From Escherichia phage AV102, in sequence record OR352933.1: a stretch of DNA of 43,345 nucleotides; one strand, given 5' to 3'. This document shows, one piece after another, positions 240 to 43,345 of this stretch. Every line of letters begins with the position of its first letter. Position 1 is the stretch's first letter. The notes under the pieces were generated by a model that searched no databases, was not told where the DNA came from, and saw only the letters and a program-made list of their open reading frames with translations. Position numbers and translations under genes: made by a program.

Positions 240-935
240 AATGCTTCCATTCTAGGGATAGCTCTAGGGATAGCCCAATACTAGCCAATACTAGCCAATA
301 CCATCTAACACTACACAAAGCAGAACGTAGTGCCCGTACGAAGTGAAAGGGCACGTAGTGATGCGGTGACTGTGTTGGTAATGCTTACTCCCTACGGTCG
401 TAATATAGGGCATTACTAGGGGATACTAGTGAGTAGTAGTAAGTAGTATGTATCTAGTGCCCTAAAACCCTCCTACTCCTGTAACATCATTTCAAATTAG
501 CTTTCGAATGAAAGTAAGGGTAAGGGATAGCTCTAGGGATAGCAAGGGATAACGCTAGGTGGCGGATAGTGGTGAGTAGTGGATGTGCGCCCTAGTGGGG
601 AGCGCGCAGCGTAGCATATAATCGGCACAATGTAAAGCACTAGAGATAACCCTAGAGATAGCTCTAGAGATAGCATATAGACGCACTAGCGGCGCACTGG
701 GCGGCCCACTACTGGCCCACTAGAGGCCCGCAAAATAAGCAAGGCAGAGCGCACCCCTACGCCCCACAGAGAGCACCCAGAGCGCACGCAGGGATAAACC
801 TAGTGCCTCCCAGAGCTTCCCAGAGCCTCTACAAGGAGCACATAGGGATAGGCATAGGATAGCTCCAGTGATAGCCATTAGACCGCGCAGGGAGCTTCTG
901 CGGCCCTCATGGAGCGCACTAGGGATAGCCATCTA
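240..935. repeat. Repeat-rich noncoding genome terminus with tandem and dispersed CTAG-containing 10-12-mers
   Basis: TCTAGGGATAGC x2 tandem (251-274); CTAGCCAATA x3 tandem (271-300); CTAGAGATA(A/G)C x3 tandem (640-674); further GGGATAGC copies at 524-559, 843-876 and 919-930. No credible ORF. Confidence 0.8.
471..487 (-). promoter_or_regulatory. Copy 1 of the exact 17-bp element (minus-strand ATGTTACAGGAGTAGGA); candidate phage RNA polymerase promoter near the genome end
   Basis: Plus-strand tcctactcctgtaacat, identical to 11157-11173 and 22743-22759. Lies in the noncoding terminus with no gene downstream, positionally like T7 phiOR. Confidence 0.45.
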
Positions 936-8219: not shown

Positions 8220-11200
8220 TTAATCGTCTCCGAAGTTATTGATGATAGCTCTCGTAGGTGCGAATTCCTGGACCAATGGGACCTGCTTAGTGAAGGTCTG
8301 GATATCCATATTTCCAGTAGCCAGGTCCTGTACCGCCCCCAGTAGACCCGTAACGTAACCCATAGACGCCAGCGAGTGACGTGGAGAGTCCCCAGTGAAG
8401 ATATCCTGCAGAAGCGAGATACCGCCGATGGCGCTCATACCCATAACCGACTCAGCGATAAGCTTCTGAGTGTCGGCCTCTTTGCCGTCCATACCGTGCT
8501 TCGCTATAGTAGCGAGTAGCATCAGCGGGAACTGGTACGCCATGATGTGTGCAACCCCAATCCACCCAGCATCGTTCAGTTCTCGGCGCAGAATCTTGTT
8601 GGTGGCAGCCAGGGCGAAGCTCTGGTAGCCAACGATTACTTTACCAATAGGGTTAAACTGTGCGAAGTGTGAGGTCTCACCGGTACGTACTTGCTGCACC
8701 AGATAATCCATCATTCTGGTACCTACCACCTCAATTTGCATTTGCAGGTCCGGCTGGAACATAGCACCAGGATTAGCTTTGTTAGCAGCAATAGCCCGGT
8801 CAGCGATTTCACGAGTAAGACCGAAACGTTCCAGACGCTTAAACGCCTCAGCGTCGCCCTTGAACATCTGCTGGAGTTCATCCGCTACAATACCTGAGTT
8901 AAGGTTAACCTGCAGTCGATGTACCATACTCATACCGTTGACGTGACGCGCAGCCTGTCCAACGTTCTGGGTGACGTTAAACCAGGAAGCCTGACGGGTC
9001 AGGTCCAAGTTATCGTCTGCGTAGGTATTCAGCCAGCGGAAGCGCATCTCCTTCTGGATACTGCCACGTAGGATTGTATCCAGGCGACTAGCCATGTCCG
9101 GATTACGAATAGCTACGGCACCCTCTTTAAACCAGGGCTGCTCACGCATACTGCGGAGTACTCGGGACATACCAAACTCTTTCAGCGCTAGAGCGGTGTC
9201 AGTAAGCTGGTACAACCCAGAGTTCTTAAGCATGGTAGCGTTGGCCATGTTACCGGCTGCACGGAGCAGGTCCGGCATTTGACCGGCGTCGGCTGGTGCT
9301 CCACCCAGGATAAAGTCAATGGTGTCATTAACGGTCTTCTCCCACTTACCCGAATCGGCTAGGGCGTGTTTGGACTCGTTAATCATCGTCTCCAGCATCT
9401 TGAGGTCAGATACCCCAGCATAAGCCATACCTACACGACCTGACATACGATTGGTGTAACCGTGCATTACCTTGGCTACATCAGTATCCATCAGGTCCTG
9501 CATACGCATAGCCTGACCATCCACGATGTACTCTTTGTCCATGTTGAAGCGGGTACGTTGACGGAGGTTCTTAGCAGGCGAGGTAGCGCCAGATTCTCGG
9601 ACATTACCTGCCAAGAAACTCTGGATTGCACTCTCGTCTACGCCAGCATTACGCATGGCCATAACCACTTCATCATTACCCATACCATTGATGAGTTGCT
9701 TCCACATAGGACCAGAGGCCGAGGAGCGTCCGTTGTAGATACCATCAACCATCTCCTTAGCAACACGTTGAACGACCTCAGGTTCCATAGACGGATACAC
9801 GTCACGTAATGCCTGGCGGAATAAATCTCGGTAGTTATCCAGGGAGCGACCGTTCGCAATACCTTGGCGCATCTTATCGTAGCTGTACTGGCGTGGGAAG
9901 TAGTAGTCTGATTTAATCAGAGTACCTTCATCCACTAAACCGGCAGCGGTCATGTGGTCATGCCACTTACTAGCCCAACCAGAGTTGCGATACGCCTCAA
10001 CAAGCGGAACTAAGTCAGAGTCCGGCAGAGGTACAGGGCGTCCATTAACCTCAGCGCTGTATGCAGAGTCCAAATAACGGCCCAAGCGGTCTTCTAAGTC
10101 AGCGCGAGCTGCTCGGAAGTTGCTACGATGGAAGAAGCGGTCCGTGAAACCTACACCTTTGGCCTTGAGGGCACCAAGTATAGCATCCTCAACTACACTG
10201 GCACTAGCGTCCATCTCCAACGTAAGATTACGTTTGAAGTCCACCACAGACGGTTTACGACCGCCTACAGCAGTAGCGTCAGATACTAATAAGCGTGCCA
10301 GGTCCTCACTACCCTCTGCGATGTTATCATACAGGGAGAACATAGTGGCGAACTTGCGCTTAGCAGTTTCCATCATAGCTTGGGCCTTCAAGGCCTCATG
10401 CTTAACCGATGTATCCGCCAAGTCCTGGAAGGCCTCACTCCGGAAGCTCTGAGCTTGGTCTGCGTAGTCCTTTGCGGTCCACTTGACAGCGTCCTCGTAC
10501 GCGTCCAGAACATCCTCCAGGGCCGAACCCTTGGTACGGACCCCAAGCGCATTCATGATGTACTCACCAATCTGGCGGAGCATGCTTTTACCGGTAGGGG
10601 ATTTAGTTCTAGAGAGGTATTCTACCCACTCAGGGCTGTCGCCTAGTCCGGCCAGCATCTCGTGCACGTCACTGGCATAATACTTAAATTTATCACTAAG
10701 AGTTGAATCTGCTGCTATTGCAGCGCGCACCTCTTCCAGCTTACTAGCAATTTCAGGATTCTGCTTGATGGCTCTGGTGGTGGCAGCGTGAATCAACTCG
10801 TGCACTGCTACTCGGCTAGTGTCCGCATCCATAGCACGCAGAGCATCCCCGGCAGTAGTCCAGGTACTTCCGTTCGCTTTCTTAGGGGCACGTAAAGATA
10901 TAAAACCCCTATCAGTTGTTGATGCTGGTGAAAATCCATAGTGACTACGGTTAGAAGAACCGGCCACCAGTTTAAAGTCGATATCCTGTACTGCGTCACC
11001 CAGGGTGTCCAGGATAGCCTTCTGACCTTTAGATAAGTGTTCAGAGGTCTTGAGGAAACGGACTACGTCCTGCGCTTTCATGTTAACAGCAGCAGTGTTA
11101 TTCCGGCGAACTTGGATAGGTTCATCCAGTACCTTAGTGAGTATTGTGTCCCCTTCTCCTACTCCTGTAACATTAGCATCCCTTGCTGTACGAGTTGTGG

Positions 11201-11918
11201 GCGCGTCCGGGTCAAACATAGGCTCACGCCCAATGCGTGCCTTTGCTGCTGCTTTAGCAGCCTTAGACATGTCCCAGAGCTGGTCTAGTCCGGCTACCCC
11301 TGCTACCAGAGCAGTGACTGCCGCAGACTGTCCCAATTGATCTTGTGCATAGACAGCTGTACCTACATCCGCTGCACGGATAGCAGTACGCACTGCTAAG
11401 CCAGCACGACCAGCGATACCCGCCGCTGACATCGGAGCCAGTATAAATGGAGCATCACCAGCCAGTGCACCGGCGAACCCAGCTACCGTGTTATCAGACA
11501 TCTGACGGTCACGGTCACGCTGTTCTAGCATAGCTTGAATGCGATAATTATAATCATCCAGGGACACCGCCCCGTGCAAGTAATCAATCTCTTCCTGATT
11601 AGGGGTGTAGAGCTTAGCTCGGGAGTCGGTGCTTAGTTGTTTCTTAGCATCAAACCCCTGCTCTGGGACGAATGTTGGGGAGGAGGCCTTTCTAATGGCT
11701 GCAGCTATAATGCTGTTACCAACCCCAGCAGCAAAGCTTTCCCCCGCTGACGTCGCAGGGGTTTTAGCCTGGGCCAGTATAGATGAACGCTGTAGTGCAT
11801 TCAGCCCATCATCTCCTGCGTCATTCCAATCTACGCTTGCAGGCGCAGGTTTAAGTGTTGCGCCCTTAGCAGAATCCTTTTCCTGTGGATTCGGTTCTTG
11901 GTTCAGAAACTGAGCCAT
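8220..11918 (-). CDS. Internal virion protein, gp16-like (ejectosome/core protein); contains an HExxH motif
   Basis: 1232 aa; position and size match T7 gp16; Ala/Gly-rich hydrophobic N-terminal segment; HELIH at residues 373-377 (nt 10788-10802) followed by Glu residues. Confidence 0.75.
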   Translation of the reverse strand: MAQFLNQEPNPQEKDSAKGATLKPAPASVDWNDAGDDGLNALQRSSILAQAKTPATSAGESFAAGVGNSIIAAAIRKASSPTFVPEQGFDAKKQLSTDSRAKLYTPNQEEIDYLHGAVSLDDYNYRIQAMLEQRDRDRQMSDNTVAGFAGALAGDAPFILAPMSAAGIAGRAGLAVRTAIRAADVGTAVYAQDQLGQSAAVTALVAGVAGLDQLWDMSKAAKAAAKARIGREPMFDPDAPTTRTARDANVTGVGEGDTILTKVLDEPIQVRRNNTAAVNMKAQDVVRFLKTSEHLSKGQKAILDTLGDAVQDIDFKLVAGSSNRSHYGFSPASTTDRGFISLRAPKKANGSTWTTAGDALRAMDADTSRVAVHELIHAATTRAIKQNPEIASKLEEVRAAIAADSTLSDKFKYYASDVHEMLAGLGDSPEWVEYLSRTKSPTGKSMLRQIGEYIMNALGVRTKGSALEDVLDAYEDAVKWTAKDYADQAQSFRSEAFQDLADTSVKHEALKAQAMMETAKRKFATMFSLYDNIAEGSEDLARLLVSDATAVGGRKPSVVDFKRNLTLEMDASASVVEDAILGALKAKGVGFTDRFFHRSNFRAARADLEDRLGRYLDSAYSAEVNGRPVPLPDSDLVPLVEAYRNSGWASKWHDHMTAAGLVDEGTLIKSDYYFPRQYSYDKMRQGIANGRSLDNYRDLFRQALRDVYPSMEPEVVQRVAKEMVDGIYNGRSSASGPMWKQLINGMGNDEVVMAMRNAGVDESAIQSFLAGNVRESGATSPAKNLRQRTRFNMDKEYIVDGQAMRMQDLMDTDVAKVMHGYTNRMSGRVGMAYAGVSDLKMLETMINESKHALADSGKWEKTVNDTIDFILGGAPADAGQMPDLLRAAGNMANATMLKNSGLYQLTDTALALKEFGMSRVLRSMREQPWFKEGAVAIRNPDMASRLDTILRGSIQKEMRFRWLNTYADDNLDLTRQASWFNVTQNVGQAARHVNGMSMVHRLQVNLNSGIVADELQQMFKGDAEAFKRLERFGLTREIADRAIAANKANPGAMFQPDLQMQIEVVGTRMMDYLVQQVRTGETSHFAQFNPIGKVIVGYQSFALAATNKILRRELNDAGWIGVAHIMAYQFPLMLLATIAKHGMDGKEADTQKLIAESVMGMSAIGGISLLQDIFTGDSPRHSLASMGYVTGLLGAVQDLATGNMDIQTFTKQVPLVQEFAPTRAIINNFGDD
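11157..11173 (-). promoter_or_regulatory. Copy 2 of the exact 17-bp element, embedded in gp16-like coding sequence
   Basis: Plus-strand tcctactcctgtaacat; encodes NVTGVG in the gp16 frame. Confidence 0.4.
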
Positions 11919-11967: not shown

Positions 11968-14652
11968 TTAGTGTGTTACCTCAAACATCCAGTTACGCAG
12001 CCCTTGCTCCAGATATTTCTTACGTTTAGGCTGTGCCTGCTTGTAAGCTGGGGTATTGCGCAGTGCTTGCCAAGCCTTACCTTGGGCCTCCGATACAGGA
12101 TACTGGTAAGCCCCTACAGGGGTCTTAGATGCCTTACGTACCTGTGCCACGGCCTCTGCTACAGGGCCAGAACTCCCGTTGCCACCATGATAGTTCAAGT
12201 CAACCATAACCTTCAGGGCATCCGCAGAGGCGCTTAGGCCCTGCCCACGCAGTTGCTTGTTCACGTTCGGGATGTACTGCTGCTCCAGAGAGGATTTCAG
12301 AATGCTGATACCATCGTCGATAGTAACCTTCTTAGGAACAGGCATACCGGAGTTGTTGTGCAGACCAAAACCTACACTGCCGTTACCTCTACCTTCCCGG
12401 AACCCTTCAAACTGCATGATATTGGCGAGAATCTCACTAAATAAAGAGGGTTCTACACCAGCCCCATTACGACCATTGACCTGAACACTTACAGCTCTGC
12501 CGTTGTCATGATCGTAGAAAGTAGCTGGGCGGATACCAACTTGCTCGCTGCCAATCTTCATCTCACCAGCCAGCGCCTTGTTGTAAGCATCCTGCGCAGT
12601 AGATTGAACATCCTGTAGATTCACAGACATAGTCTGAAAGGTACCCTTCTTGTCGAATACGGTGACAGTCATATTCTGTGCTGAGTTGCCTGCTGTAGCA
12701 GCCTGCACTACTACGCGCTCAAGGTTGCTTGGGTCGATTAAGGCGTTGACCTGGTTCTGAATCTGCTGCTGCAGAGACGACTTGAACTGCTCCTGGTCTC
12801 CTCGATAATCCCCCATTAGGGATTGAATAGAAGTCCCAGCTGGCAGGTACACGTGCCGAGGAGCCCCAGAGATATCTAACTCCAGCTTACGGGCTTGGAT
12901 GTTACCTTTGAGCATCGTGTTGATATCATCAGGATCCTTACCAACTAACGCCTCTGGGTTGTGATTGTATACGTACCGATACTCTTCCTCCATAGCGGCG
13001 CGCGCTTCCTGGCGCTGTGCGTCAGCTGTGCCGAAGAAGCTGAACCAGTTAGCAGTGCCACTCGGATCCACCATTTTGTCTGTGGGGTTGCTACTGATGT
13101 TGCTGTAGCGCCCGCTAGCCTTGTTACGGGCCTGGCGACGCAGGTCGTCCAGAATGGTGTTGCTAGCGTTATTGGGGTTCTGTGCAATGGCCTTCTGAAC
13201 CACCCCCTGCCACTCAGATGGGACTTCAGACAGCAGAGCCATCTTACCTAAGTCGGTACTGGTACTATATGCTTGGGCCCACAGGTTGATGCTATTGACA
13301 TTCTCCTTGGACACCTGCCCATCCTCACCTAACTGGTCCAGTGTAGTGAGGGTGCGCGCCATATCCGAGGACATGCGCTTGTATGCTTCATTGATGGCCC
13401 ACGCATCTTTACTATTGCTACCATAAGCCAGTAGCTGCAAGTTCCCCTCTGGAGTGTCTGGGAAGTTTTTGAGTACCTGTGACCGGGCCTTATCCAAATC
13501 CCCTTTAAACATACCAGCTAAGGTGGATGTAGGAAGGTTTCCTGTGATGGCACTACGTAAAGCCTGTGTATCGGCAGTCTTCTCCCTGATAGTCTGAGCC
13601 TTGTTCCAGAACTCCATACTGGTGCCGGGGCTCAGTACATCCGTAGCAGATAGCTCAATCACGCGGTTGCGGATACGCTGCATCGTCTGCTCCTGCTCTT
13701 CTGGGGACTGCCCCTCCAGAGACTGAATTGCATCTGAGATTTCAAAGCGAGCCTGAGTCTCAATCTGAGCCCCAGCACGCTTAAATTCCTGATACAAGGC
13801 AGCATTAACGTCTACAGAGTTAACACCAAGCTCTTTAGTTGCCATTTCCTGCAACTGGTTGATGATTAGAGGGTCCTGGGTCTGCTGCGCTACACTAACC
13901 AGATACTGCTTGGCCCGGTCCAACTTCTTGGACTTATCCAGGTGCTCAGCTGCCAGGATACTATCCAACCCTGTCTTAATTGACATCTGTGCAGCAGCAC
14001 CCTGCCCAGCATCCAGGCGCTGATAGAACTCATCAACGGAGGAGCTGAGCCCACGGTCCAGCGCACGGTCTGCTTGTGCTACTGCAAACTCTGCGCGACC
14101 TTTCTGGAAGGCCGTGTAGTTAGCTAAGCTGGTTGCACGGAGCTGTTGCAGTACCGCCGTAGCGGACTGTTTGGACATATCCGGAAGATACATACCGAGC
14201 TTGTCAGACATAGCTTGAACATGCTCTTGCTCCTGCTGGTGAAATTCCTCATCAGTCAGTCCAGCCTCAGCTGCCTTCTTAGCGCGAGTAATACTATCCG
14301 TACGCCACTTAGCTAGAGAATCGTAGGCCGCAGCAGATACATAACCATCCTGGTAGGCTTCTCGTACAAATAGGTTCTGCTTCTGCACTGCCTCATCTTT
14401 AGAGGCCATTGCATCTACTGCACCCTGGGCATCCATAGCACCCCGCACAGTGGCTGCTGCTGCGTTTTCTTTTACTGCTGCATCAAATCCTATGCCGAAG
14501 TCCTGGACAAAGCCAGAGAGTGCTGCAAGGCGGTTTGCTTTGGACGTGTCTACTACTACATCCCCGACTGTAGAGGGCAAGTTAACCTCGTTGGCCTGCA
14601 ATTGCACGCCGCCGATATTTAGACCCTGTCGGTTGGGTTGAATTACAGGCAT
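11968..14652 (-). CDS. Internal virion protein, gp15-like
   Basis: 894 aa; position between gp14-like and gp16-like genes. Confidence 0.7.
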   Translation of the reverse strand: MPVIQPNRQGLNIGGVQLQANEVNLPSTVGDVVVDTSKANRLAALSGFVQDFGIGFDAAVKENAAAATVRGAMDAQGAVDAMASKDEAVQKQNLFVREAYQDGYVSAAAYDSLAKWRTDSITRAKKAAEAGLTDEEFHQQEQEHVQAMSDKLGMYLPDMSKQSATAVLQQLRATSLANYTAFQKGRAEFAVAQADRALDRGLSSSVDEFYQRLDAGQGAAAQMSIKTGLDSILAAEHLDKSKKLDRAKQYLVSVAQQTQDPLIINQLQEMATKELGVNSVDVNAALYQEFKRAGAQIETQARFEISDAIQSLEGQSPEEQEQTMQRIRNRVIELSATDVLSPGTSMEFWNKAQTIREKTADTQALRSAITGNLPTSTLAGMFKGDLDKARSQVLKNFPDTPEGNLQLLAYGSNSKDAWAINEAYKRMSSDMARTLTTLDQLGEDGQVSKENVNSINLWAQAYSTSTDLGKMALLSEVPSEWQGVVQKAIAQNPNNASNTILDDLRRQARNKASGRYSNISSNPTDKMVDPSGTANWFSFFGTADAQRQEARAAMEEEYRYVYNHNPEALVGKDPDDINTMLKGNIQARKLELDISGAPRHVYLPAGTSIQSLMGDYRGDQEQFKSSLQQQIQNQVNALIDPSNLERVVVQAATAGNSAQNMTVTVFDKKGTFQTMSVNLQDVQSTAQDAYNKALAGEMKIGSEQVGIRPATFYDHDNGRAVSVQVNGRNGAGVEPSLFSEILANIMQFEGFREGRGNGSVGFGLHNNSGMPVPKKVTIDDGISILKSSLEQQYIPNVNKQLRGQGLSASADALKVMVDLNYHGGNGSSGPVAEAVAQVRKASKTPVGAYQYPVSEAQGKAWQALRNTPAYKQAQPKRKKYLEQGLRNWMFEVTH

Positions 14653-18244: not shown

Positions 18245-18290
18245 AAAAAAAAAAAAAAAAGCCCCCGGCACCCGAAGGCACCAGGGGCGC
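18245..18290 (-). terminator. Intrinsic terminator after the capsid module: 12-bp stem with UUCG tetraloop followed by U16
   Basis: Minus transcript GCCCCUGGUGCC-UUCG-GGUGCCGGGGGC then 16 U (plus-strand A16 at 18245-18260); three G-U wobble pairs mean it folds well only on the minus transcript. Position equivalent to T7 Tphi. Confidence 0.8.
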
Positions 18291-22038: not shown

Positions 22039-22302
22039 TTACAGGCCCAGGGGGTTGCTCTGCCCTGCCCGTCGCCGTTTCTTCTGCTCAGACGTAATTG
22101 CATCTGCAGATGCAGAGGCCGCCCCGGAGGGGTTGATCTCAGCAATATTGTCAGCTGCACTGTTTGCCTCTAAGGCTGCCTGCTGTTTTGCTGCCTCAGC
22201 CTGCTGCTCAGCCATGCGCTGCTGTTGTTCTAATCCTTCGTTATCAGTAAGGCCAAGCATATCCGTGGCCTTACCTAACAGTTTACCTAATCCACCGCTC
22301 AT
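22039..22302 (-). CDS. Hypothetical protein (87 aa, Ala/Gln-rich), possibly virion-associated
   Basis: ORF immediately upstream of the portal gene. Confidence 0.45.
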   Translation of the reverse strand: MSGGLGKLLGKATDMLGLTDNEGLEQQQRMAEQQAEAAKQQAALEANSAADNIAEINPSGAASASADAITSEQKKRRRAGQSNPLGL

Positions 22303-22742
22303 GCTGACCTCACTAAATGGTAAGTTGTTTTGTAAGTATTATCCGATGTATTGCGACTAATGGCGATGCGCCCAGCTCGCATACACTTAGCGATTGCTTG
22401 CAGACCCTTCATAACTACAAGCATTGCCTCACTGTTTCCTGGTTTCAATACGAAGAAGTCTGTGTACAACACAGGCTCTACGTAATGGCAGTCCTCTACA
22501 GCTTCTGGGTAGTAACTGACAGCGCCTACTAAGTCGCCCCGAGAGTCATAGACCCCTAGTATATACTGTTTACCTAGTATACTTTTTAGTACTCTCCAAT
22601 AGTGTTGCTCTGTGGTAAGGCCCCGACTAATGCCGTGACCAAGTTCGTGCAGAGCTCTCACTGCTTTTCTGATATCATCGTGATTATGCAGAACTTTTAG
22701 GGAGTAAGTATTAGGTGTTTTACTAGTGTGTTTTAACTTCAT
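22299..22742 (-). CDS. Hypothetical protein with HELGH (HExxH) motif
   Basis: Start set at MKLKHTSK (22742; AGGAG 6 nt upstream); the track N-terminal extension to 22805 overlaps the upstream gene. HELGH lies near the N-terminus. Confidence 0.5.
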   Translation of the reverse strand: MKLKHTSKTPNTYSLKVLHNHDDIRKAVRALHELGHGISRGLTTEQHYWRVLKSILGKQYILGVYDSRGDLVGAVSYYPEAVEDCHYVEPVLYTDFFVLKPGNSEAMLVVMKGLQAIAKCMRAGRIAISRNTSDNTYKTTYHLVRSA

Positions 22743-22759
22743 TCCTACTCCTGTAACAT
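22743..22759 (-). promoter_or_regulatory. Copy 3 of the exact 17-bp element, between the SLOG-like gene and the next ORF
   Basis: Plus-strand tcctactcctgtaacat; minus-strand AGGAG within it also serves as the RBS of the downstream ORF. Confidence 0.45.
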
Positions 22760-22765
22760 TAAATT

Positions 22766-23104
22766 TTAGTAGGGTTCCCAAACCGGTATACCTGCCTTTC
22801 TGCACAGTTCAACCATACCAGCGGTCCCCCTTCCTCCAGGAAAGGCAACACAGTATTCAGGAAAGGCCAGGGATATCATGGCGGCGTTCCTACGTATACC
22901 CGCAGATTTACCTTGTGCATCCCACAGTGCGGGCATACGCAGAACAAATACACCAGATTCCAGGGCCCACCTATCTGCCAGTGCATCCGCCCCTCTGGCA
23001 TTTCCATGTATCACTACAGATGGCTTGTTTGGCAGCATATCCATTGCGGTTTTTAGTGCTAGGTAGTCTGAGTAATCACGCCCACCAGTTACCAGTACTC
23101 TCAT
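22766..23104 (-). CDS. Small SLOG/DprA/LOG-like Rossmann-fold protein (DUF2493-like), function unknown
   Basis: 112 aa; RVLVTGGRDY N-terminal glycine motif, HGNARGADALADRWA (DprA-like), PGGRGTAGMVE (LOG-like PGGxGTxxE). Confidence 0.5.
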   Translation of the reverse strand: MRVLVTGGRDYSDYLALKTAMDMLPNKPSVVIHGNARGADALADRWALESGVFVLRMPALWDAQGKSAGIRRNAAMISLAFPEYCVAFPGGRGTAGMVELCRKAGIPVWEPY

Positions 23105-23113
23105 ACGATTCCC

Positions 23114-25582
23114 TCAACAAAAGAAGAATGGAGATTCAAGCACTTGTCGGATGTCCAAAGTACCGATTGCAGGCATCTCTAAATCTGTGAGGTCTGCCCC
23201 TGCTTCGGCAGCTGCCCGGGTAATATCTCCAAGCAGATCGTGCTCCTCGTACAACTTCACAAACTGTTCACGGATATGTCGGTGCAGGGCATCTACATCA
23301 ACCGCGTGAGTAGCCATTGAGTCGTGAATCGGGACAATATCCAGACCCTCTGCAGCACAGAGCACCATCATGAGGTGTGTGCTATCTAGGCTATGCACAA
23401 AGTTCGGGGCAATACCAGAGGCAGCCTTGCGCTTATTACAGGTCTTAAAGTCACGGTTGTGCACCAGCACGGCAGATAGGTTCATACAATCAATACGTAC
23501 ACGCACCTCCTCTCGCTGAGAGTACCGGTTCATCACCAGCCCACCTAGCGGGGTCTTCCACTGCAGATGCTGACTAGCAGGTACACGCCTAGCGAGGTTC
23601 TGCAGATACCCCATAGCTGCTGCTGCTGCTGGGTTAGCTTCCTCAATAGCGCTACGCATTCTAGGGGCAAGGTAGCAGGATAAGTTCCAGAGACTGTGCG
23701 TGTCTGTTCCTTCATACCCCTCTTCACAGGCCCCTGCAAAGATGTAGTCGCTGCAGCTGCGCACCGTGGCGCTGTAGAAGTAGGTCATGCTAGGACGCTT
23801 GGTCATGTTTCGAGTAATCTCGTTCTCTCTCCAGTACGTGCTCTGGATAACGAAATCCTCTTTGTCCAGGTCCAGTATCACCTTCTCGTCCGTACGGCGC
23901 TTCACGTCCATATACAGATCCGCTTTCTTGTCGTTACCCTCCCAGTACAGGTTCGTCAGGCGTCCGCCTACAGGGTCTCTCAGGAGCGCTGAGAGGTGCT
24001 GCCCACCTGAGTTTGTAGCATCCATAGCAACTGGGATTCGGCTAATATACTCTTCTGGGCATCCAGAACGTACAGCATTAACCAAGTCGATAGCGGATGC
24101 TAGGAAGCACCAAGGGCTGTCGGCGGAGGTAAAAGCAGGGCAATCAAAAGGAGAATCCGCGAGCTGCTCAATCTCTGCAAAGTTTGCATCAACCCAAGCT
24201 GCGCGGTCTTCGAATAGGGTTTTGTCATAACCAAAGCAGGTAGCGACGTGCACTTTAAGCCAGAATAACCCTCTCTCTCCCAGAGGTTTACCTCGTCCGA
24301 ATTCAAGAAGTGCCTTCTGCAAATCAGAACCTTGGGGGTGCAGTGAGGACTTGAAGTACAGCCGGTACCGCCAATCCACACAGGTTGGGAAGTACAGGGC
24401 TTTCTCATCTTTGAATTCCTCTGCCATCTCTAGCGTGGTCAATAGACTACGTAGTTGCGACACACGTTTACGGTCGGCGCTGTACCATAAGGACATACGC
24501 GTCTTCCACTCTCCGAAGCGGTCGAGTTCCTCCTCGGTGTAATTCTCTTTTGGTACACCATCTAAGTACCACTCAGGTTTCGGATCTGGCACTGAGCGCG
24601 GCATACCTACACCAATACCTAAGGCCCGTGCTTCTTGTACCAGTTCCAGTATTCGCTTATTAATGCGATAAGGAGTTTCCTGCGCCTTATTAAGTGCCTT
24701 CTTGATACCGTCCGCAGACTTAAATGCTTCCGCTACTTCACGCAGTCTGGCGCGGTCAATGTGTGAGTTGTGGTACGTCCCACGGTTATCGATTGGGGTG
24801 AGGTATCCACCATCCCACAATGTAGTATGTGGCACCGGCGGTACCAGCATCGGAGGCTTCATAGTTACAGTGTCAGCAGATTCCACTAACTGCTGAAATG
24901 CTTCCATAACATTATCTGCGGGATAGAGCATACTCAAGTTCCCGCTACCAGTCTTCCACTGGAACAGCCCCGTCTCAAACACTGCGGAACACAGCAGACG
25001 TCCCACAGCAATATTCTGAGCGTTGGTCCAAGGCTCATGCCCATAGTGCACGTTCTCAGCACTGGCGCGGAGCGTACGCAGAATGTGCGTAGGCGACTTA
25101 GTACGGCGCTCAGTGAGGTATTCATATACCCGGTCCATATATGCTGGGGCAACATTACGCAGTTGTAGGGCCAGCAGCTCTGACTGTACATTCCTACCCA
25201 GAGCGGACATCACTGCCTGAGCTGTCTGGCGGCGACTGGCGGACTCACCAGGGGCGACACTGAACGCCTCAAACATTGTGCACAGGCTCAGAGTAGTTAG
25301 GACATCCAAGGGGACTAAGCGTAGGAATCGGCGGTACTTTCCACCGATACCCGGGGCTTTGACGTTACGCATTTCCTCAATGGCTGCAGAGGCCACGTCG
25401 TACGCAGAGGTTAGCATGCGCTGAGCCATAGGCAGGTTCATAATCCCGCCGTTTTGCAGAGCATCGGTAATCAATTTGCGAGCACGTTCAATGCCGCGAA
25501 TCTTGTAGGTCTCTTCAAGCTCCAACTGACGTTCCACCAGCGCTTCATCTGGTACTACAACCGTATTCAGGGCGCTAATCAT
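23114..25582 (-). CDS. Single-subunit DNA-dependent RNA polymerase (T7-like)
   Basis: 822 aa; AMDATNSGGQHLSALLRD and IHDSMATHA resemble conserved T7 RNA polymerase catalytic motifs; located late, next to the structural genes. Confidence 0.9.
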   Translation of the reverse strand: MISALNTVVVPDEALVERQLELEETYKIRGIERARKLITDALQNGGIMNLPMAQRMLTSAYDVASAAIEEMRNVKAPGIGGKYRRFLRLVPLDVLTTLSLCTMFEAFSVAPGESASRRQTAQAVMSALGRNVQSELLALQLRNVAPAYMDRVYEYLTERRTKSPTHILRTLRASAENVHYGHEPWTNAQNIAVGRLLCSAVFETGLFQWKTGSGNLSMLYPADNVMEAFQQLVESADTVTMKPPMLVPPVPHTTLWDGGYLTPIDNRGTYHNSHIDRARLREVAEAFKSADGIKKALNKAQETPYRINKRILELVQEARALGIGVGMPRSVPDPKPEWYLDGVPKENYTEEELDRFGEWKTRMSLWYSADRKRVSQLRSLLTTLEMAEEFKDEKALYFPTCVDWRYRLYFKSSLHPQGSDLQKALLEFGRGKPLGERGLFWLKVHVATCFGYDKTLFEDRAAWVDANFAEIEQLADSPFDCPAFTSADSPWCFLASAIDLVNAVRSGCPEEYISRIPVAMDATNSGGQHLSALLRDPVGGRLTNLYWEGNDKKADLYMDVKRRTDEKVILDLDKEDFVIQSTYWRENEITRNMTKRPSMTYFYSATVRSCSDYIFAGACEEGYEGTDTHSLWNLSCYLAPRMRSAIEEANPAAAAAMGYLQNLARRVPASQHLQWKTPLGGLVMNRYSQREEVRVRIDCMNLSAVLVHNRDFKTCNKRKAASGIAPNFVHSLDSTHLMMVLCAAEGLDIVPIHDSMATHAVDVDALHRHIREQFVKLYEEHDLLGDITRAAAEAGADLTDLEMPAIGTLDIRQVLESPFFFC

Positions 25583-26529: not shown

Positions 26530-26948
26530 TTAATAATCTCCCGTGCTTTGCGTCGTGCCCTGGCCTTGCGGGCCTTGAGCTTCTGTGCCTGTGCCTGTTC
26601 TTCCGGTGTCTTATATGTATAGTATAGCATATCCGTGGGTTCACGGTCTAGGTAGTCGGCAACCCTACGCAGAGATTCAGCAATAGCGCTAGAAGATTGC
26701 ATGCTACCAACAATCCAACGCCCAGCCGCAGAGGCCACTTTCCCCTCTCCACCATTGCATGAGCGATGCAGAGCACCCCGGATGCGCCCAGTAATGTGAC
26801 AATGGTCAACAACAACAGAATCACCAGTCACGCCTCTGATTGTAAAGTCCAATGGTTTACCGCAGAGCAGGCACAACCCACCCTGGTCCTTAGCTAGCTT
26901 AATAGCTACTGAGCGTATCTGCGCCCGGGTAATCTTACGCAGCGCCAT
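26526..26948 (-). CDS. Endonuclease VII-like Holliday junction resolvase
   Basis: VVVDHCHITGRIRGALHRSCN matches the endonuclease VII zinc-binding and catalytic signature. Confidence 0.75.
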   Translation of the reverse strand: MALRKITRAQIRSVAIKLAKDQGGLCLLCGKPLDFTIRGVTGDSVVVDHCHITGRIRGALHRSCNGGEGKVASAAGRWIVGSMQSSSAIAESLRRVADYLDREPTDMLYYTYKTPEEQAQAQKLKARKARARRKAREIIK

Positions 26949-27302: not shown

Positions 27303-28227
27303 TGTCTGGGTGCTCCTGTATCCACTGTATGTGCTGTTTATGGTACTCGTGCAGCGAATGCACCCAGTCACGTAGACTGGGAGTAGTCAACAGTGACATC
27401 AGATACTGATAGGCAGAATCTGATTGGGAGCGTCTCAGCCACAGGCATTCTGCCTCTGCGAGTACGTCTTGGTTGTTTCTAGCATAAGCCGCTACAACGA
27501 ACTCTGCGGCGTCTTGCTCTGAGGTAATAGGGTAGATAGCATCAAAGGCCGTTCGCTTGCCACAGGGCTTCCCATCAAGCAACGTGATGCCTTTGACGTT
27601 ATCTGCGTCGTCTCCTGCTAGCATCTGCCACCAGAAGAACTTCAACCCGTGTGCTCGTACAGGCATAGCCTGGGTGTCATCCCACTTAATCCATCCGAAG
27701 GGATCCTCCAGTGCAGGCCACACTGTACCGGTTGAGATATCAAACCGGGCCATAGGGCTGAGCCAGGAGTCCTTGTCCTGTGACATTAGTATACCGCGCT
27801 CACCGAAAGCGTATGAGTCCATTATGAATAGATCATCCGCCTCGAAGAAGTCGCTACTAACTACTTGGATACCTTGCTCAGAATACTGGTCCGGATTATC
27901 AATCAGGTGCCGCTTCAAAGGGGCCTTCAGTGGTAGCTCCTGCCGGTTAGCTCGCTGCCCCTGGTACGGCTTAGCTGTGGGTAGGTGCCAACGCAGACAC
28001 TTAGCACAACCAGCAGGAGTCAGATACGCCACTGCTTCCGAGCAGCCCACCAAGAACATGTCCTCAAGCACTAGCTGATAGAAGCGACGTATCGCCGTAT
28101 CCAAACGTTTCACTGTAGCGGCGGCTTTGTACACGCAAAAATCTGCGTCATATAGCAGAATCTTCCCAGAGTTCTGCGGGGCTAGCTGCTCCCCGAGCTG
28201 GGACAAGTCAACCCCGTTGATAATCAT
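27259..28227 (-). CDS. 5'-3' exonuclease (T7 gp6-like, FEN family)
   Basis: 322 aa; N-terminal ILLYDADFCVYKAA resembles the T7 gene 6 exonuclease N-terminus with acidic metal ligands. Confidence 0.75.
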   Translation of the reverse strand: MIINGVDLSQLGEQLAPQNSGKILLYDADFCVYKAAATVKRLDTAIRRFYQLVLEDMFLVGCSEAVAYLTPAGCAKCLRWHLPTAKPYQGQRANRQELPLKAPLKRHLIDNPDQYSEQGIQVVSSDFFEADDLFIMDSYAFGERGILMSQDKDSWLSPMARFDISTGTVWPALEDPFGWIKWDDTQAMPVRAHGLKFFWWQMLAGDDADNVKGITLLDGKPCGKRTAFDAIYPITSEQDAAEFVVAAYARNNQDVLAEAECLWLRRSQSDSAYQYLMSLLTTPSLRDWVHSLHEYHKQHIQWIQEHPDNGEDVCEGNEPAGD

Positions 28228-30331: not shown

Positions 30332-30511
30332 TTAGGTTTTGATTGTGTCGCCAACTTTTAAACTCAGAGCTGAGGCTTCATCTTTATACCACCGCTCCGT
30401 CTCAGACTTGTGTCCCCAGCAGTCATACTCTAGGGTTACACGGTACACCTGGTATTGCTCATCCCATACAGGTGCATCTACTCGGGTGACGGTTGAATCG
30501 AGTACATTCAT
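30332..30511 (-). CDS. Hypothetical small protein
   Basis: Probable start MNVLDSTV at 30511 (RBS AGGAAG; ATGA overlap with the upstream stop); the track ORF extends to 30571. Confidence 0.4.
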   Translation of the reverse strand: MNVLDSTVTRVDAPVWDEQYQVYRVTLEYDCWGHKSETERWYKDEASALSLKVGDTIKT

Positions 30512-31542
30512 TTGCTTCTTCCTACCCAACGACCATCGTCGTCGAGCAGCATCGGAATTAATTGTGGGCAACCCTCTGTGATTACCAGTACACCCAGGAT
30601 TGGTTTCTTACGGGCTAACCTACCGTATGCAAAGGCCAGACTCTTACGGTCAATCAAGCAGCCTGCATACGCGCCAAAATATAGTGCCGTCGAAGACGCT
30701 GCATACTGAACTTCGAATCTGCCATGCTCATGCCCCAAGACCAAAGAAGTGCGCTCATGCGATGCGTTAAGCATGAAGTCACCTGATACCTGATGTTGGA
30801 AGCGGACCGGTCCGAGCGGTGTATTGAGCACCCAAGCATCGGCCCACGACCATGCCGGAGCACCGTGCTCAGGGAACAAGATATCGCGGTACTTCTTAAT
30901 AAATTGCACCGGCAAACCGTGAGCCTTGGCGCGACGATACACCAGACTTCCGTGATTGGAATCGCATACGAGAAGATTCGGGAAGAGTTCATGCAGCTGC
31001 TCCAGTACTAACTTAGCCTTCTCCAGTTCCACCCCGGCGCTATCCAGGTTCGGGTCGGAGTCGTGGAAACTAATTGCGTGCCCATCCGTCTCGTCGCCCA
31101 CCTGCACCACCATGTCCGGACAGTACTCATCCCGCACGCTTCGCAAGAAGTCCATAGCATCTACGTGAGTATAAGGAGCATGCAAATCACCCACAACAAG
31201 AATACGGTGACAGGTACTAGGAACGCTAGTATTTCCAATGTCGTCGGTTGGGCTCGGCTGAATAAGCTTACGAGCTTCCTGTAAACCACGGTTAGCATTC
31301 GCTTTGCTCCCGTTGTTATCCATGAAGATGCTACGCCAGTAGCGCACAAGCTGGCGGGACACCACACACTCTGCAGTACCGGGGGTGCTGTAGTATTCAG
31401 CAGTCTCCTTGTACTGTGGTATCTCCCCATAAGCCAATAGTACGTTATATGCTTTAGCGGCAGTAGAGTTATCCAAGTACTGGCCCAGGATTGCCTGGTG
31501 CTGCTCTTTGGTGAATAGTTTGATTAGACTTACTTTAGCCAA
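30508..31542 (-). CDS. Calcineurin-like metallophosphoesterase with ~110-aa N-terminal extension
   Basis: Ordered motifs GDLH, GDETDGH and DSNHGS of the calcineurin-like phosphoesterase fold; apparent TTG start codon with RBS GAGAGG. Confidence 0.65.
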   Translation of the reverse strand: MAKVSLIKLFTKEQHQAILGQYLDNSTAAKAYNVLLAYGEIPQYKETAEYYSTPGTAECVVSRQLVRYWRSIFMDNNGSKANANRGLQEARKLIQPSPTDDIGNTSVPSTCHRILVVGDLHAPYTHVDAMDFLRSVRDEYCPDMVVQVGDETDGHAISFHDSDPNLDSAGVELEKAKLVLEQLHELFPNLLVCDSNHGSLVYRRAKAHGLPVQFIKKYRDILFPEHGAPAWSWADAWVLNTPLGPVRFQHQVSGDFMLNASHERTSLVLGHEHGRFEVQYAASSTALYFGAYAGCLIDRKSLAFAYGRLARKKPILGVLVITEGCPQLIPMLLDDDGRWVGRSK

Positions 31543-31563
31543 GGGTTGCCTCTCTTATGTTGT

Positions 31564-31584
31564 TCCTACTCGTATCACATTAAT
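31564..31584 (-). promoter_or_regulatory. Diverged copy of the conserved element (minus TAATGTGATACGAGTAGGA) in the intergenic region upstream of the phosphoesterase gene
   Basis: 14 of 17 core positions match the exact element; lies in the only sizeable intergenic gap of the replication module (31543-31704), about 22 nt upstream of the gene start. Confidence 0.45.
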
Positions 31585-31704
31585 TCTCTGTGAATCACAA
31601 AATCAAGCCAGAGTCAACAAATAATTTTATTTAATTACCTGCTTGACCCCAGCTAATTCTCATGTTACCCTAACCCCCTACACCACCCAAGGGTCCACCT
31701 ATCA

Positions 31705-31926
31705 TCACTCCGCTATAAGTTTGTACTCTCCAGAGAAGAAGGTAATACCATCCCCAGGCTTCTCTGAATTATTGTCTGGATTCATTAACTCCACCTCCCA
31801 GAATTCGGGGTCATAAGATATCACACGATGCTGAGTGCCTGGTGCAAAGTAATCACGATGTCTAGGCTCTAAGGGTTCCGGCCCAAGTCCTAGTATCTCC
31901 ACAATACTACCCGGTTTAATAGTCAC
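31705..31926 (-). CDS. Hypothetical protein (73 aa)
   Basis: ORF immediately downstream of the DNA polymerase gene, 4-nt overlap. Confidence 0.5.
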   Translation of the reverse strand: MTIKPGSIVEILGLGPEPLEPRHRDYFAPGTQHRVISYDPEFWEVELMNPDNNSEKPGDGITFFSGEYKLIAE

Positions 31927-34289
31927 TCTACTTTCTCCTTACTGTACATACTTGTACCCATTTCAGCTTCCGCTGGAAACGGGACTTCGCCAATGATGCC
32001 GTAGTTAGGCCAGAGCTGGTGAATACGCTTAGGTGCATCCTCCATACACTGCTTAACTAACAGGCTCGCTTCTCTACCTACTTCCGGATTAGCACTATCC
32101 AGATACAATGCATCGTGCACGTTCGTAATCAAGCACACCTGATTATTGAACCAATCCCGTGCCAGCATTGCACGCAGAACCATACCAGCTGCTACCGCCA
32201 TCAGGAAGAATGCCTCACCCTGACACCAGTAGTTAGCCATCTCAGTTTCTTTGTAGTCCATCACCTTTTGTTTGCGCTGGCCAGGGACTACTTCCTTCCA
32301 CTGCTCCTTCTGGCGGAAGCTGTACCGTGCACCAGCTGGGCTGGTCCAGGTGCCAATGCGGTAGATGCGGTAGCTGCCATCATCCGCTTGCTCCCGGTAC
32401 ATGCGCCCAGCCGCCCCGGTGCGCTCTACCTCCTCCTTTACTACCGCCCGGAATCCGATGGTGTCTGGGAACAGCTTCGCCTCGTTATCCAGGAACGACT
32501 GTGCATACTCCACTGTACAGCCTGTAGCAAACGCAATCCCTTTAGCCGTAGCCCCGTACTGTGCAGCAAAGCTCGGAGGCTTAATGTCCGTACGCTGCTG
32601 CTTCCAGTATTTGTAGTCCGGCCCATCTGCGTTGTGGCAGAGGTCGTACATCTCTTCGTAGGTTTTGCCCTCCTTGAACGCTAGGCGGTAGCAGTGCATA
32701 TCCGTGCCGTTCTGCAGCAAACCCAACAGCTTCCTGTCTCCGGTGTGCACACAAGACATAACCACTTCCAGGGCAGAGTAATCAACCTCAGTGATACGAC
32801 CGGATTCCCCGAAACGGGAAGTGAACATCTGTTTTACTTTACTAGTTCCATCTCGCGGGAGGTTCTGGAGGTTTGGGTTAGAGCCAGATAGTCGCCCGGT
32901 AACAGTAGCACAGGTGTTAAGGCGGTGGTGGATAATACCCGAACCATCAGGGTTCTGAGGTATAACATATTGGAGCATGCCTGAGGTCTTTTTAATTGAC
33001 CCATCTTCGTTATACTCCGTTCGTAGATAGTAAGTTCCTGTATCCTTTTCCAGAGCGCCCAGCTCGTTCACCAATCTACAGAACTCAAACCCATGACGGG
33101 CCAGCGCTTCCATTGCGTCTGTACTGGTGCTGTAGACTGGTGTGCCGTCCTGCAGGCACCGGGCTTGCCTGAACTCTCCGCGCTCAGCATATTTCTCTCG
33201 GAGTACCTCTGGGAGCTCTTGGATGTTAACCAGGCCCGGGCAGAAGTAGAGGTCGTCCTCCCATTTGAGTTTCTCTTCCGCTGTATCTATGCGGAAAACT
33301 TTTGGTAAGCCCTTGTTCTTACCGGCCTTGTAAGTAACGAAGTTGTGTGCACCACTGACATCCGTACTTTCACAAGGTACAAACGTCCCCTCTGTACCTT
33401 GCACTAGATAGGCATCCACCTTCACATACTGCGGTGGGTCGTAGGGCACCTTCTTGCGGTACTTGATAGGGCCGCCATATACCAGCGCAGACATGTGGAA
33501 GTCAGACCCGAAGTTGAAATCCAACGTCTCCGGTAAGTCCTTGGGGATATACTGCTGCAGCTCCTGCTTAATCTCCAGGATACGCTGCTCCTGTTCCTCT
33601 TGGTTCTTGCGTGCAATAGGCATGTTCACGAACAGGCCGAACCATTCGCAGTAGGCCCAAGCCAGCAACGCATCCATACGCTCCCATACGTACTGCATCT
33701 GATTACGCTGGGCGAAGATATTGCACTGCCCGTAGAAGCACATGGCCGTGTTCGGGATATCCCCATTAACCAGGTAGTCGTGCAGCAGCATCGGGTCAAT
33801 CTGGGAGGTTAACACGCCCTGCTCCCAGAGAATCTTAACCCCATCTACTTTGTGCGTACCACCATACTTAGGAGCCGTCTCGTCCAGTGACGGATACATG
33901 CTCTGAAAGTCCGAGGCGATGTATTCCCCGTGCATTGTGCAGAACACCCTGCCGCCGCGCTTGAGGAAGGCCTCAAACTGCTGCCGCTGGTACGTGAGAA
34001 ACCAAGAAATCTCATAGGCTGCGTTGTGCGCAACAATAAGCCAGCAATCCTCGGGGATATGAAACCACCGGCAGCCTTCTGCTGCACTGTTTCCCGCCAA
34101 GAAATCAGCTCTTGAATTGAAGCGCACCGATTGAGTCGCGCCAACAGTGGTAGTACCGTCAGCCTGTGTCGTGTCGATACGCCATGCGGACTCAACAACA
34201 TAGTTGTCAGGGCAGTATGGGCTTGCTTTAGAGCCATAATATTCATTGTTCTCCGTCTCCAAGTCGATGTGCATTATACTGGTTGTCAT
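31923..34289 (-). CDS. DNA polymerase, family A (T7 gp5-like) with 3'-5' exonuclease domain
   Basis: IDLETEN (Exo I), DYSALEVV (motif A), KPPSFAAQYGATAKG (motif B), NVHDALYLD (motif C). Start set at MTTSIM (34289; RBS GGGAGG); the track ORF extends to 34307. Confidence 0.9.
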   Translation of the reverse strand: MTTSIMHIDLETENNEYYGSKASPYCPDNYVVESAWRIDTTQADGTTTVGATQSVRFNSRADFLAGNSAAEGCRWFHIPEDCWLIVAHNAAYEISWFLTYQRQQFEAFLKRGGRVFCTMHGEYIASDFQSMYPSLDETAPKYGGTHKVDGVKILWEQGVLTSQIDPMLLHDYLVNGDIPNTAMCFYGQCNIFAQRNQMQYVWERMDALLAWAYCEWFGLFVNMPIARKNQEEQEQRILEIKQELQQYIPKDLPETLDFNFGSDFHMSALVYGGPIKYRKKVPYDPPQYVKVDAYLVQGTEGTFVPCESTDVSGAHNFVTYKAGKNKGLPKVFRIDTAEEKLKWEDDLYFCPGLVNIQELPEVLREKYAERGEFRQARCLQDGTPVYSTSTDAMEALARHGFEFCRLVNELGALEKDTGTYYLRTEYNEDGSIKKTSGMLQYVIPQNPDGSGIIHHRLNTCATVTGRLSGSNPNLQNLPRDGTSKVKQMFTSRFGESGRITEVDYSALEVVMSCVHTGDRKLLGLLQNGTDMHCYRLAFKEGKTYEEMYDLCHNADGPDYKYWKQQRTDIKPPSFAAQYGATAKGIAFATGCTVEYAQSFLDNEAKLFPDTIGFRAVVKEEVERTGAAGRMYREQADDGSYRIYRIGTWTSPAGARYSFRQKEQWKEVVPGQRKQKVMDYKETEMANYWCQGEAFFLMAVAAGMVLRAMLARDWFNNQVCLITNVHDALYLDSANPEVGREASLLVKQCMEDAPKRIHQLWPNYGIIGEVPFPAEAEMGTSMYSKEKVE

Positions 34290-36377: not shown

Positions 36378-37158
36378 TCAAAGCCTCCAGTATTTCTTTG
36401 ATTTCTGCGTCCTTAGGATCTGCAGCGAAGTAGTGTTCTCGGCACTGCATGAACGGGCGCAGTGCTCGGCGTGCTGCTGCTACCCCAGCATGCCCTGCCT
36501 GGTCATTGTCCAGCATCAGAATCACTTCCGGGCGATTCTGAATCAGCCAGGCTCGCAGCTGCGTGGGCAAGCGTGTACCCAGCATAGCTATAGCCTGCAC
36601 GTTCAACGCACTGTAGCTCGTAACTGCGTGCTGTATCTTCCGGGCTGAGAGTAAGTCCTCGGTGAGCACGACCTTTAGAGGTGCGGCCACAGCTACAGCC
36701 GGTGCTACGGCAGGTGCCGCGACAGCGAAAGCTATTGGCTGGCCGTACATTACCCACTTCGGTTGCTGTCGGGCATGAACAGCACGACCCAGTACAGCAC
36801 CCCCGACACGGAATAGTATCCGCTGTTTCTCGTTGCTCCACTCTGCATCCTCCACCATTTCAGGCATGATTCCTTTTGAAGCAAGGAATCCGTAAATAAA
36901 ACTCTGCGTTTCCGCAGGCGCTTGGTTAATGCAAATTGCATCTGCAGGTGCAGAGGGCTGCACCCTCGGCTCTTCCTGTAACTGTATGCGCTGGTACTGC
37001 TTGCGCTCCTTGCCTACCTGTTTGCAGCGGTGACAGTAGTATTCCCAGGCATCCGGGTTATTATAGAGCACCCCGGCGGCGTCCCTGCCGCAGCACCGAA
37101 AGCGTGCCCTCTGCCCCACGGCCAGGCGCTTGCACGCTCTAAGCCAGGGCTGGTCCAT
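36370..37158 (-). CDS. DNA primase (zinc-ribbon + TOPRIM)
   Basis: N-terminal Cys cluster CKRLAVGQRARFRCCGRD...YYCHRC; TOPRIM-like acidic motifs VVLTEDLLSARK and ILMLDNDQAG. Confidence 0.8.
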   Translation of the reverse strand: MDQPWLRACKRLAVGQRARFRCCGRDAAGVLYNNPDAWEYYCHRCKQVGKERKQYQRIQLQEEPRVQPSAPADAICINQAPAETQSFIYGFLASKGIMPEMVEDAEWSNEKQRILFRVGGAVLGRAVHARQQPKWVMYGQPIAFAVAAPAVAPAVAVAAPLKVVLTEDLLSARKIQHAVTSYSALNVQAIAMLGTRLPTQLRAWLIQNRPEVILMLDNDQAGHAGVAAARRALRPFMQCREHYFAADPKDAEIKEILEALNV

Positions 37159-41846: not shown

Positions 41847-41870
41847 TTGAAACCTCGTTGTTAACGGTAT

Positions 41871-41901
41871 TCACATAGCGCCCCGCAGGACGCTATAGGC
41901 T
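41871..41901 (-). promoter_or_regulatory. Conserved early-region hairpin element, copy 1
   Basis: Minus transcript AGCCUAUAGCGUCC-UGCG-GGGCGCUAUGUGA: 10-bp stem including G-U pairs, so strand-specific. Confidence 0.55.
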
Positions 41902-42619: not shown

Positions 42620-42655
42620 GATGCACCTCTTTGATTGGTTGTTTAGGTAATTACT

Positions 42656-42686
42656 TCACATAGCACCCCATAGGATGCTATAGGCT
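42656..42686 (-). promoter_or_regulatory. Conserved early-region hairpin element, copy 2
   Basis: Minus transcript AGCCUAUAGCAUCC-UAUG-GGGUGCUAUGUGA: same 10-bp stem as copy 1 with one G-C pair replaced by A-U. Confidence 0.55.
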
Positions 42687-43329: not shown

Positions 43330-43345
43330 GGGATTCAATCTAGCT
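43330..43345. repeat. Terminal direct repeat copy matching positions 1-16
   Basis: Same 16-mer as the window start; boundary is approximate by 1 nt. Confidence 0.6.

Follow-up and report, generated by a model that had tools for sequence, protein, structure and literature searches.

A repeated element in Escherichia phage AV102 is very probably the KP34-type promoter of the phage's own RNA polymerase

Introduction

Phage T7 has 17 copies of its promoter, and its class III and phiOL promoters read TAATACGACTCACTATAGGGAGA. The closest described counterpart of the element studied here is the strong promoter of phage KP34. The KP34 RNA polymerase has been purified, and the 5' end of a transcript was mapped by RACE to KP34 nucleotide (nt) 22213 (Lu et al. 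2019, Front Microbiol, PMC6834552). Two strong KP34 promoters, S1 (TAATGTTACAGGAGTA, nt 22197-22212 and 33721-33736) and S2 (TGATGTTACAGGAGTA, nt 475-490), showed equal activity in run-off transcription in vitro, and the 14-nt core shared by both was much weaker on its own than the full 16-mer (PMC6834552). PhageProm has since catalogued 467 KP34-like promoters in 135 genomes (PMC11880802). A literature search for a Drulisvirus transcriptome found none.

Promoters have also been described in more distant phages. In LUZ19, promoters were mapped by ONT-cappable-seq at 21115, 21312 and 35590 and, in antisense orientation, at 736; this layout agrees with that of KP34, as the authors of the LUZ19 study note (PMC10914365). 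The record of LIMElight (FR687252) carries features annotated as "putative phage specific promotor" at 14061, 15535 and 22024. A different kind of repeated motif is the phiKMV-type nick consensus CGACNNNNNCCTACTCCGG, which was reported by Kulakov et al. 2009, as cited in PMC3604761 and PMC4482731. The RefSeq entry of LUZ19 still labels four nick-associated CGACN5CCTACTCCGG motifs, at 3130, 6753, 14413 and 24765, as "phage-specific promoter sequence"; the promoters of LUZ19 mapped by ONT-cappable-seq contain another motif.

The DNA analyzed here is the complete 43,345-nt stretch of Escherichia phage AV102 (record OR352933.1), referred to below as the window. The original prediction, made from the letters of the window, had proposed that an exact 17-bp element present three times is the core of a phage RNA polymerase promoter.

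Results

Compared with Escherichia phage Minorna and with KP34, the window proved to be a Drulisvirus genome in reverse complement and in circular permutation. Minorna is 97.5% identical over a 6-kb stretch, and some 240 further genomes of Drulisvirus (KP34-like) follow at 80 to 90% identity. KP34 nt 1 corresponds to window position ~1013. The direct terminal repeat is present in a single copy (~1013->747), and the window is thus a permuted, collapsed assembly and not the linear virion genome. Positions 1-16 and 43330-43345 are identical, which resembles a circular-assembly overlap. An early host sigma-70 promoter (TTGACACCGCGAAGGACATAAGCTAGATT, 36->8, minus strand) reads over the window junction into 43345 and downward. 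A strong intrinsic terminator (18251..18288, minus strand), consisting of a 12-bp stem followed by T10, is located 3' of the capsid gene block and is a homologue of the terminator annotated in KP34 at 26623-26660.

A search of the window recovered all three identical 17-mers (TCCTACTCCTGTAACAT, plus strand) exactly, at 471-487, 11157-11173 and 22743-22759. The variant that had been listed with 14 of 17 matching positions is real and corresponds to a copy with three mismatches at 31564-31580. The search for further degenerate copies, proposed as a check, added a second three-mismatch copy at 27770-27786, which the first list did not contain. With up to three mismatches, TCCTACTCCTGTAACAT has five matches in the window versus 0.18 expected from dinucleotide-preserving shuffles (n=100), none of which contained more than one match; the repeat is beyond chance, as had been claimed. 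Seven further matches with four mismatches stand against about three expected according to our own binomial estimate. An Rfam search of the window gave no matches.

Every long ORF of the window lies on the minus strand, so that the functional reading of TCCTACTCCTGTAACAT is ATGTTACAGGAGTAGGA. In this coding form, the element is T(A/G)ATGTTACAGGAGTA|GGA, in which T(A/G)ATGTTACAGGAGTA represents promoter positions -16 to -1 and the following GGA the initiating bases. The left-end copy reads TGATGTTACAGGAGTAGGA in its context (489->471), and the contexts of the other two copies (11175->11157 and 22761->22743) are both TAATGTTACAGGAGTAGGA. The extended minus-strand form had been described as beginning with TAAT, which applies to 22761->22746 and 11175->11160 and not to 489->474, where the sequence starts with TGATG.

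Comparison with KP34 revealed that the 16-mers of the window are letter for letter the promoters S1 and S2, the left-end copy being S2 and the two others S1. Each of the three copies is followed by GGA, is located on the gene strand and is syntenic with one of the three strong promoters of KP34. The window encodes a single-subunit RNA polymerase (RNAP) of 822 amino acids (23114..25582, minus strand; Pfam RNA_pol, 4.9e-89), which is identical to the KP34 RNAP in 781 of 822 residues (95%). Its specificity loop, NLSAVLVHNRDF, is identical to that of KP34, with SAVL at residues 703-706, and the SGIAPNF and DATNSGGQH motifs are kept, as is Y603, the residue of the KP34 RNAP that was mutated by Lu et al. 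(PMC6834552). In the 16-mers, the GGA start, the three genomic positions and the polymerase, the two phages show no difference of substance. This identity of sequence, synteny and polymerase supports the promoter reading of the original prediction, and we consider it very probable that the phage's own RNA polymerase, a T7-like single-subunit enzyme of the KP34/Drulisvirus type, uses the repeated element as its promoter. By analogy with KP34, from which the start points and unit boundaries are transferred, the polymerase of the window phage would initiate at the G that follows GTA. A homologue of the weak KP34 promoter W (nt 22144-22163), ACTTTGGACATCCGACAAGT, was detected with one mismatch at the 3' end of the RNA polymerase gene (23142..23161, minus strand); it lies in coding sequence, and its conservation alone therefore says little.

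The late promoter (22746..22761, minus strand) is an exact match to the S1 copy at KP34 nt 22197-22212. Its inferred start is the G at 22745, and the ATG of the next gene (22299..22742) begins at +4. The same arrangement is present in KP34, where transcription starts at nt 22213 and the ATG of gene 38 is located at 22216. An ATG at +4 results in a transcript with a leader of 3 nt (GGA AUG), an odd design for the first gene of a unit. GGAATG is conserved at this site (22740-22761, minus strand) in the relatives, with GGGATG in two contigs. The AGGAG inside the late promoter can at most act as a Shine-Dalgarno sequence on read-through transcripts from upstream. A promoter copy directly precedes the gene-38 homologue in 62 of 64 related loci, and it is kept whether or not the polymerase gene is followed by inserted cargo (SLOG or HNH). 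In the window, this cargo is a SLOG gene (22766-23104, minus strand; 112 amino acids; YspA/SLOG family, Pfam PF10686, 2.2e-14), which separates the polymerase gene from the late promoter. In KP34 this position is empty, and the promoter follows the polymerase stop codon after 6 nt. Other relatives carry an HNH endonuclease gene there, which indicates a cargo-insertion hotspot. The predicted location of this copy at the head of the structural operon is accurate in that the copy directly precedes the first head-region gene, with the qualification that the SLOG gene separates it from the RNAP gene.

The internal late promoter (S1 type, 11160..11175, minus strand) has the same sequence as KP34 33721-33736. 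It is positioned 743 nt inside the internal-virion-protein gene (8220..11918, 1,232 amino acids), at the same offset as in KP34, in agreement with the predicted copy inside a gp16-like gene. Its putative start is at 11159, and in the protein it encodes N-V-T-G-V-G. Synonymous third positions are frozen inside this promoter, with a mean entropy of 0.19 versus 0.62 outside. Among 45 distinct sequences, four of the six silent third-codon positions inside the promoter are invariant, one is the same in 44 of 45, and the sixth is the A/C switch at promoter position -7 described below (ACA/ACC, both Thr); outside the promoter, 79% of the potentially silent third-codon positions vary. In five loci (L247-L249, L252 and L259), an insertion of ~564 nt is present in the internal-virion-protein gene upstream of the promoter, and in two others (L051 and L052), ~784 nt are inserted inside the RNAP gene match. 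These insertions could be introns, inteins or homing elements.

The left-end promoter (S2 type, 474..489, minus strand) is identical to the S2 copy at KP34 nt 475-490. Its start is predicted at 473, and it lies upstream of the sigma-70 promoter (36->8) and the early genes, with no obvious gene to serve. This copy had been assigned to the genome end. Its proximity to the start of the window results from the reverse-complemented, permuted assembly; because KP34 nt 1 maps to ~1013, the copy is located ~0.5 kb inside the physical left end. The left-end copy of Minorna carries a G->C exchange at promoter position 11 (-6) and reads TGATGTTACACGAGTA.

The promoter sites and the polymerase were compared across IMG/VR loci that cover the polymerase gene (64 loci), the N-terminal part of the internal-virion-protein gene (66 loci) and the first early gene (43 loci). 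The related polymerase loci are L003-L066; of the 63 "longest ORFs" gathered, six did not encode polymerases and were left out. Natural promoter variants begin with TAAT, TGAA or TGAT and have either A or C at position 10 (-7). In the 57 contigs with at least two sites, the base at -7 is A throughout (27 contigs) or C throughout (30 contigs), and no contig is discordant. The polymerases differ in the same manner: residues 703-706 are SAVL in all 28 A-type polymerases and TI(M/L/V)R in all 29 C-type polymerases. These residues align with T7 L757-T760 in an ungapped register to the shared SGIAPNF motif. In T7, L757-T760 belong to the specificity loop, which reads the bases from -11 to -7.

The A and C types do not form clades. 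On rough UPGMA trees, at least six type changes are required for the RNAP backbone and at least nine for the internal-virion-protein fragment. This scattered distribution indicates that a perfect match between promoter and loop is maintained across mosaic backgrounds. The A/C concordance, the match with the loop, the scattered types and the frozen silent positions together indicate that the three sites are read by one trans-acting protein, the phage polymerase.

Three other explanations of the element were weighed against the promoter. The late copy resembles a translation-initiation module, composed of the Shine-Dalgarno sequence AGGAG, a spacer and ATG, that would have been copied before genes: 22743-22759 reads AGGAGTAGGAATG, its ATG is the annotated start of the next gene, and the Minorna record marks a ribosome-binding site at the late copy. 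Such a module fits the late copy alone; the other two copies, one in frame in the 1,232-amino-acid gene and one in the noncoding left end, have no start codon after them. Moreover, the conserved segment reaches 10 nt upstream of AGGAG, and -7 covaries with the polymerase and with nothing ribosomal, which makes this explanation very improbable. Passive repeats, such as recombination junctions or duplication relics without present function, would agree with two patterns that are typical of mosaic junctions: cargo genes (SLOG here, HNH elsewhere) lie beside the late copy, and varied genes follow the variant copy at 31564-31580. The sites are, however, fixed in sequence, strand and position across the related contigs (57 with at least two sites covered), their synonymous positions are frozen, and even on mosaic backgrounds all sites switch between A and C together and in step with the polymerase loop. 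Passive repeats, the least probable of the readings weighed here, are excluded by this conservation and covariation.

The third alternative, which is just as improbable as the translation module, is a site-specific nick motif of virion DNA like CGACNNNNNCCTACTCCGG, instead of or besides a promoter. The plus strand of the window reads CCTACTCCTG, and C-type relatives contain in the reverse complement of their promoter exactly CCTACTCCGG, the 3' half of the phiKMV nick consensus, which the A-type sequence of the window matches at 9 of 10 positions. In addition, the LUZ19 motif was first annotated as a phage promoter and later linked to nicks. The CGAC-N5 half of the consensus is absent at the window copies, however, and the LUZ19 motif is found on the coding strand, in the orientation opposite that of the element; with an incomplete consensus and inverted orientation, the element does not belong to the phiKMV-type nick sites. 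In fHe-Kpn01, a C-type Drulisvirus, PhageTerm analysis and S1 nuclease treatment located one nick, at nt 7873, the promoter sites being free of nicks, and no Drulisvirus nick has been reported at these sites. For the same sequence, promoter activity has been directly shown in KP34 (PMC6834552).

The variant copy, designated element V (TAATGTGATACGAGTA followed by GGA; 31564..31582, minus strand), is a candidate promoter that matches S1 at 13 of 16 promoter positions and at +1 to +3. It is located ~20 nt upstream of the TTG start of a metallophosphoesterase gene (30508..31542; phrog_221, 4.8e-111), as expected from the predicted copy upstream of the phosphoesterase gene. V is invariant in the window and in all 54 relative loci in which it was found, C-type genomes included. 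It belongs to an intergenic block of ~90 nt (31545-31640, minus strand), which is conserved in all relatives with a detected V and consists, in this order, of an AT-rich tract, TTGACTCTGGCTTGATTCTGTGATTC, a variable patch of 6 nt, V and GGAACAACAYAAGAGAG; different genes follow the block in different phages. The mismatches between V and S1 are at -10, -8 and -6, in the region read by the specificity loop, and V keeps A at -7 even in C-type genomes, without A/C covariation. V accordingly differs from the KP34-type promoters in the strong-promoter sequence and in the covariation with the polymerase type. The text of Lu et al. does not mention V (PMC6834552). V is therefore a putative promoter: no KP34 promoter published so far corresponds to it, and the A/C switch does not extend to it.

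Other functions were considered for V. A sigma-70 promoter was rejected because the scan gave no match in 31300-31900 and the best manual fit, TTGATT-N18-TAATGT, reached 7 of 12 positions, and an RNA structure was rejected because the fold z-score of -1.2 is not significant. In favor of promoter function, LIMElight and the LIMElight-like contig L057 have phage-promoter copies, annotated or inferred, at the place syntenic with V; this contig and a Koutsourovirus show a V-like pattern with motifs of their own. A module consisting of an AT-rich tract, TTGACW, ~27-28 nt and a promoter-like core is also present in LIMElight, L057 and a Koutsourovirus. Evidence against promoter function comes from the mismatches with S1, from the missing A/C covariation and from LUZ19, whose nick-associated motif at 14413-14432 is likewise syntenic with V and has no reported start site. 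As judged from sequence comparison, V might be a working promoter of the phage polymerase, but we consider this somewhat doubtful.

The second three-mismatch look-alike (TAATGTCACAGGACAA, 27773..27788, minus strand) is located inside the exonuclease gene, and two of its three mismatches are in the -1 to -5 segment. KP34 has no counterpart with four or fewer mismatches, and the copy in Minorna has four. With mismatches in the -1 to -5 segment and no conservation in KP34, it was treated as a chance occurrence in coding sequence and is probably nonfunctional. The primase gene contains another promoter-like sequence, TACAGTTACAGGAAGA (36971-36986, minus strand), whose conservation extends to KP34, Minorna and fHe-Kpn01; the site that corresponds to the sole mapped nick of fHe-Kpn01 (nt 7873) follows ~20 nt downstream.

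Eriksson et al. 2015 had predicted another motif as the phage promoter; its two copies in the window (41870-41901 and 42655-42686, minus strand) were set aside, as the motif showed no activity in vitro in KP34 (PMC6834552). Each copy folds into a long hairpin composed of an inner stem of 10 bp, a tetraloop and an outer stem (z = -5.1 and -3.1, respectively), and the outer stems pair in the same way in spite of different sequences. In the early transcripts, these hairpins resemble those that act in RNA processing or stability. An exact scan of IMG/VR with GTTACMGGAGTAGGA gave matches that, among those listed, were mostly in unrelated contigs. One of these unrelated contigs (L084, IMGVR_UViG_3300020435_000035) contains three GATGTTACAGGAGTAGGAAC copies within 450 nt (2431-2874). 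They belong to a tandemly repeated coding segment (..DVTGVGTA..), which indicates a coincidental match and no promoter cluster.

Comparison with T7 revealed a homologous single-subunit polymerase, ~16-17 bp of promoter upstream of +1, a TAAT start and initiation with G, and both phages have a left-end copy upstream of host promoters as well as copies in the late region. The promoter sequences, in contrast, diverge between -13 and -1: in an alignment by eye, the T7 consensus is not matched, and only TAAT, A-10/C-9 and the G start coincide. There are three canonical copies here versus 17 in T7, and the polymerase gene is located at the end of the middle genes and not at the start. The T7-like distribution stated in the original prediction is valid as an analogy, with few promoters and left-end, late-head and internal late copies; the sequence itself is not of the T7 group.

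The promoters of LUZ19 and other members of Phikmvvirus, GgtTATGTCACacACAnnGG, are unrelated in sequence (PMC10914365). LUZ19 resembles the window phage in having few promoters, located directly after the polymerase gene and inside the large internal-virion-protein gene (35590), and differs in its tandem pair of copies behind the polymerase gene and in an antisense copy close to the left end. LIMElight has one copy behind the polymerase gene, and a second occupies the place of V, with the DNA polymerase gene and a small ORF ahead of it. Its middle-region copies are preceded by the same upstream module (AT-rich tract, TTGACA, ~27 nt). These copies share the full core, ACGTTATAGAGAG, with the late copy of LIMElight, whereas V of Drulisvirus departs from the strong promoter at -10, -8 and -6.

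Discussion

The repeated element of phage AV102 is already known and is ordinary for KP34-like phages. It brings no new biology, since experiments on KP34 had already established this 16-mer in 2019 and the catalogue of its occurrences covers 135 genomes. Its recovery here shows that repeat statistics and placement let a sequence-only reader find a real phage promoter.

The position of the polymerase gene at the end of the middle genes implies that the host polymerase must transcribe the early and middle regions first, from the sigma-70 promoter at 36->8. In the scheme that we propose, the phage polymerase (23114..25582) would be made at the end of the middle region from these host-polymerase transcripts, would bind its duplex sites, melt the GTA|GG segment and start with G. 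The copy at 22761->22746 (start 22745) would drive the head genes up to the terminator at 18288->18261, which, by analogy with KP34, would bound the first late transcription unit. Re-initiation at the copy at 11175->11160 (start 11159) would supply the tail-fibre, terminase, lysis and tailspike genes. The copy at 489->474 (start 473) would read into the early region, as phiOL does in T7, and by this analogy may serve replication or packaging rather than gene expression. The span of each transcription unit and the function of the left-end copy are our inference.

Element V is a fully invariant, promoter-like candidate in the middle region. As a tentative reading, held with the same reserve as its promoter activity, V would be an unreported fourth promoter, deliberately weak, upstream of the middle and polymerase genes; it would provide positive feedback, and the module would extend across Drulisvirus, Koutsourovirus and Limelightvirus. 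The LUZ19 case advises caution, since there a syntenic repeated intergenic motif was first called a promoter and was later found to mark nicks.

The alternative bases at -7 and the residues of the specificity loop suggest a further aspect of the KP34-type phages. The combinations of -7 A with SAVL and of -7 C with TIMR may be natural matched specificity types and may represent orthogonal pairs. The covariation between -7 and the loop could be of use in designing KP34-type polymerases and promoters that work as orthogonal pairs in RNA synthesis.
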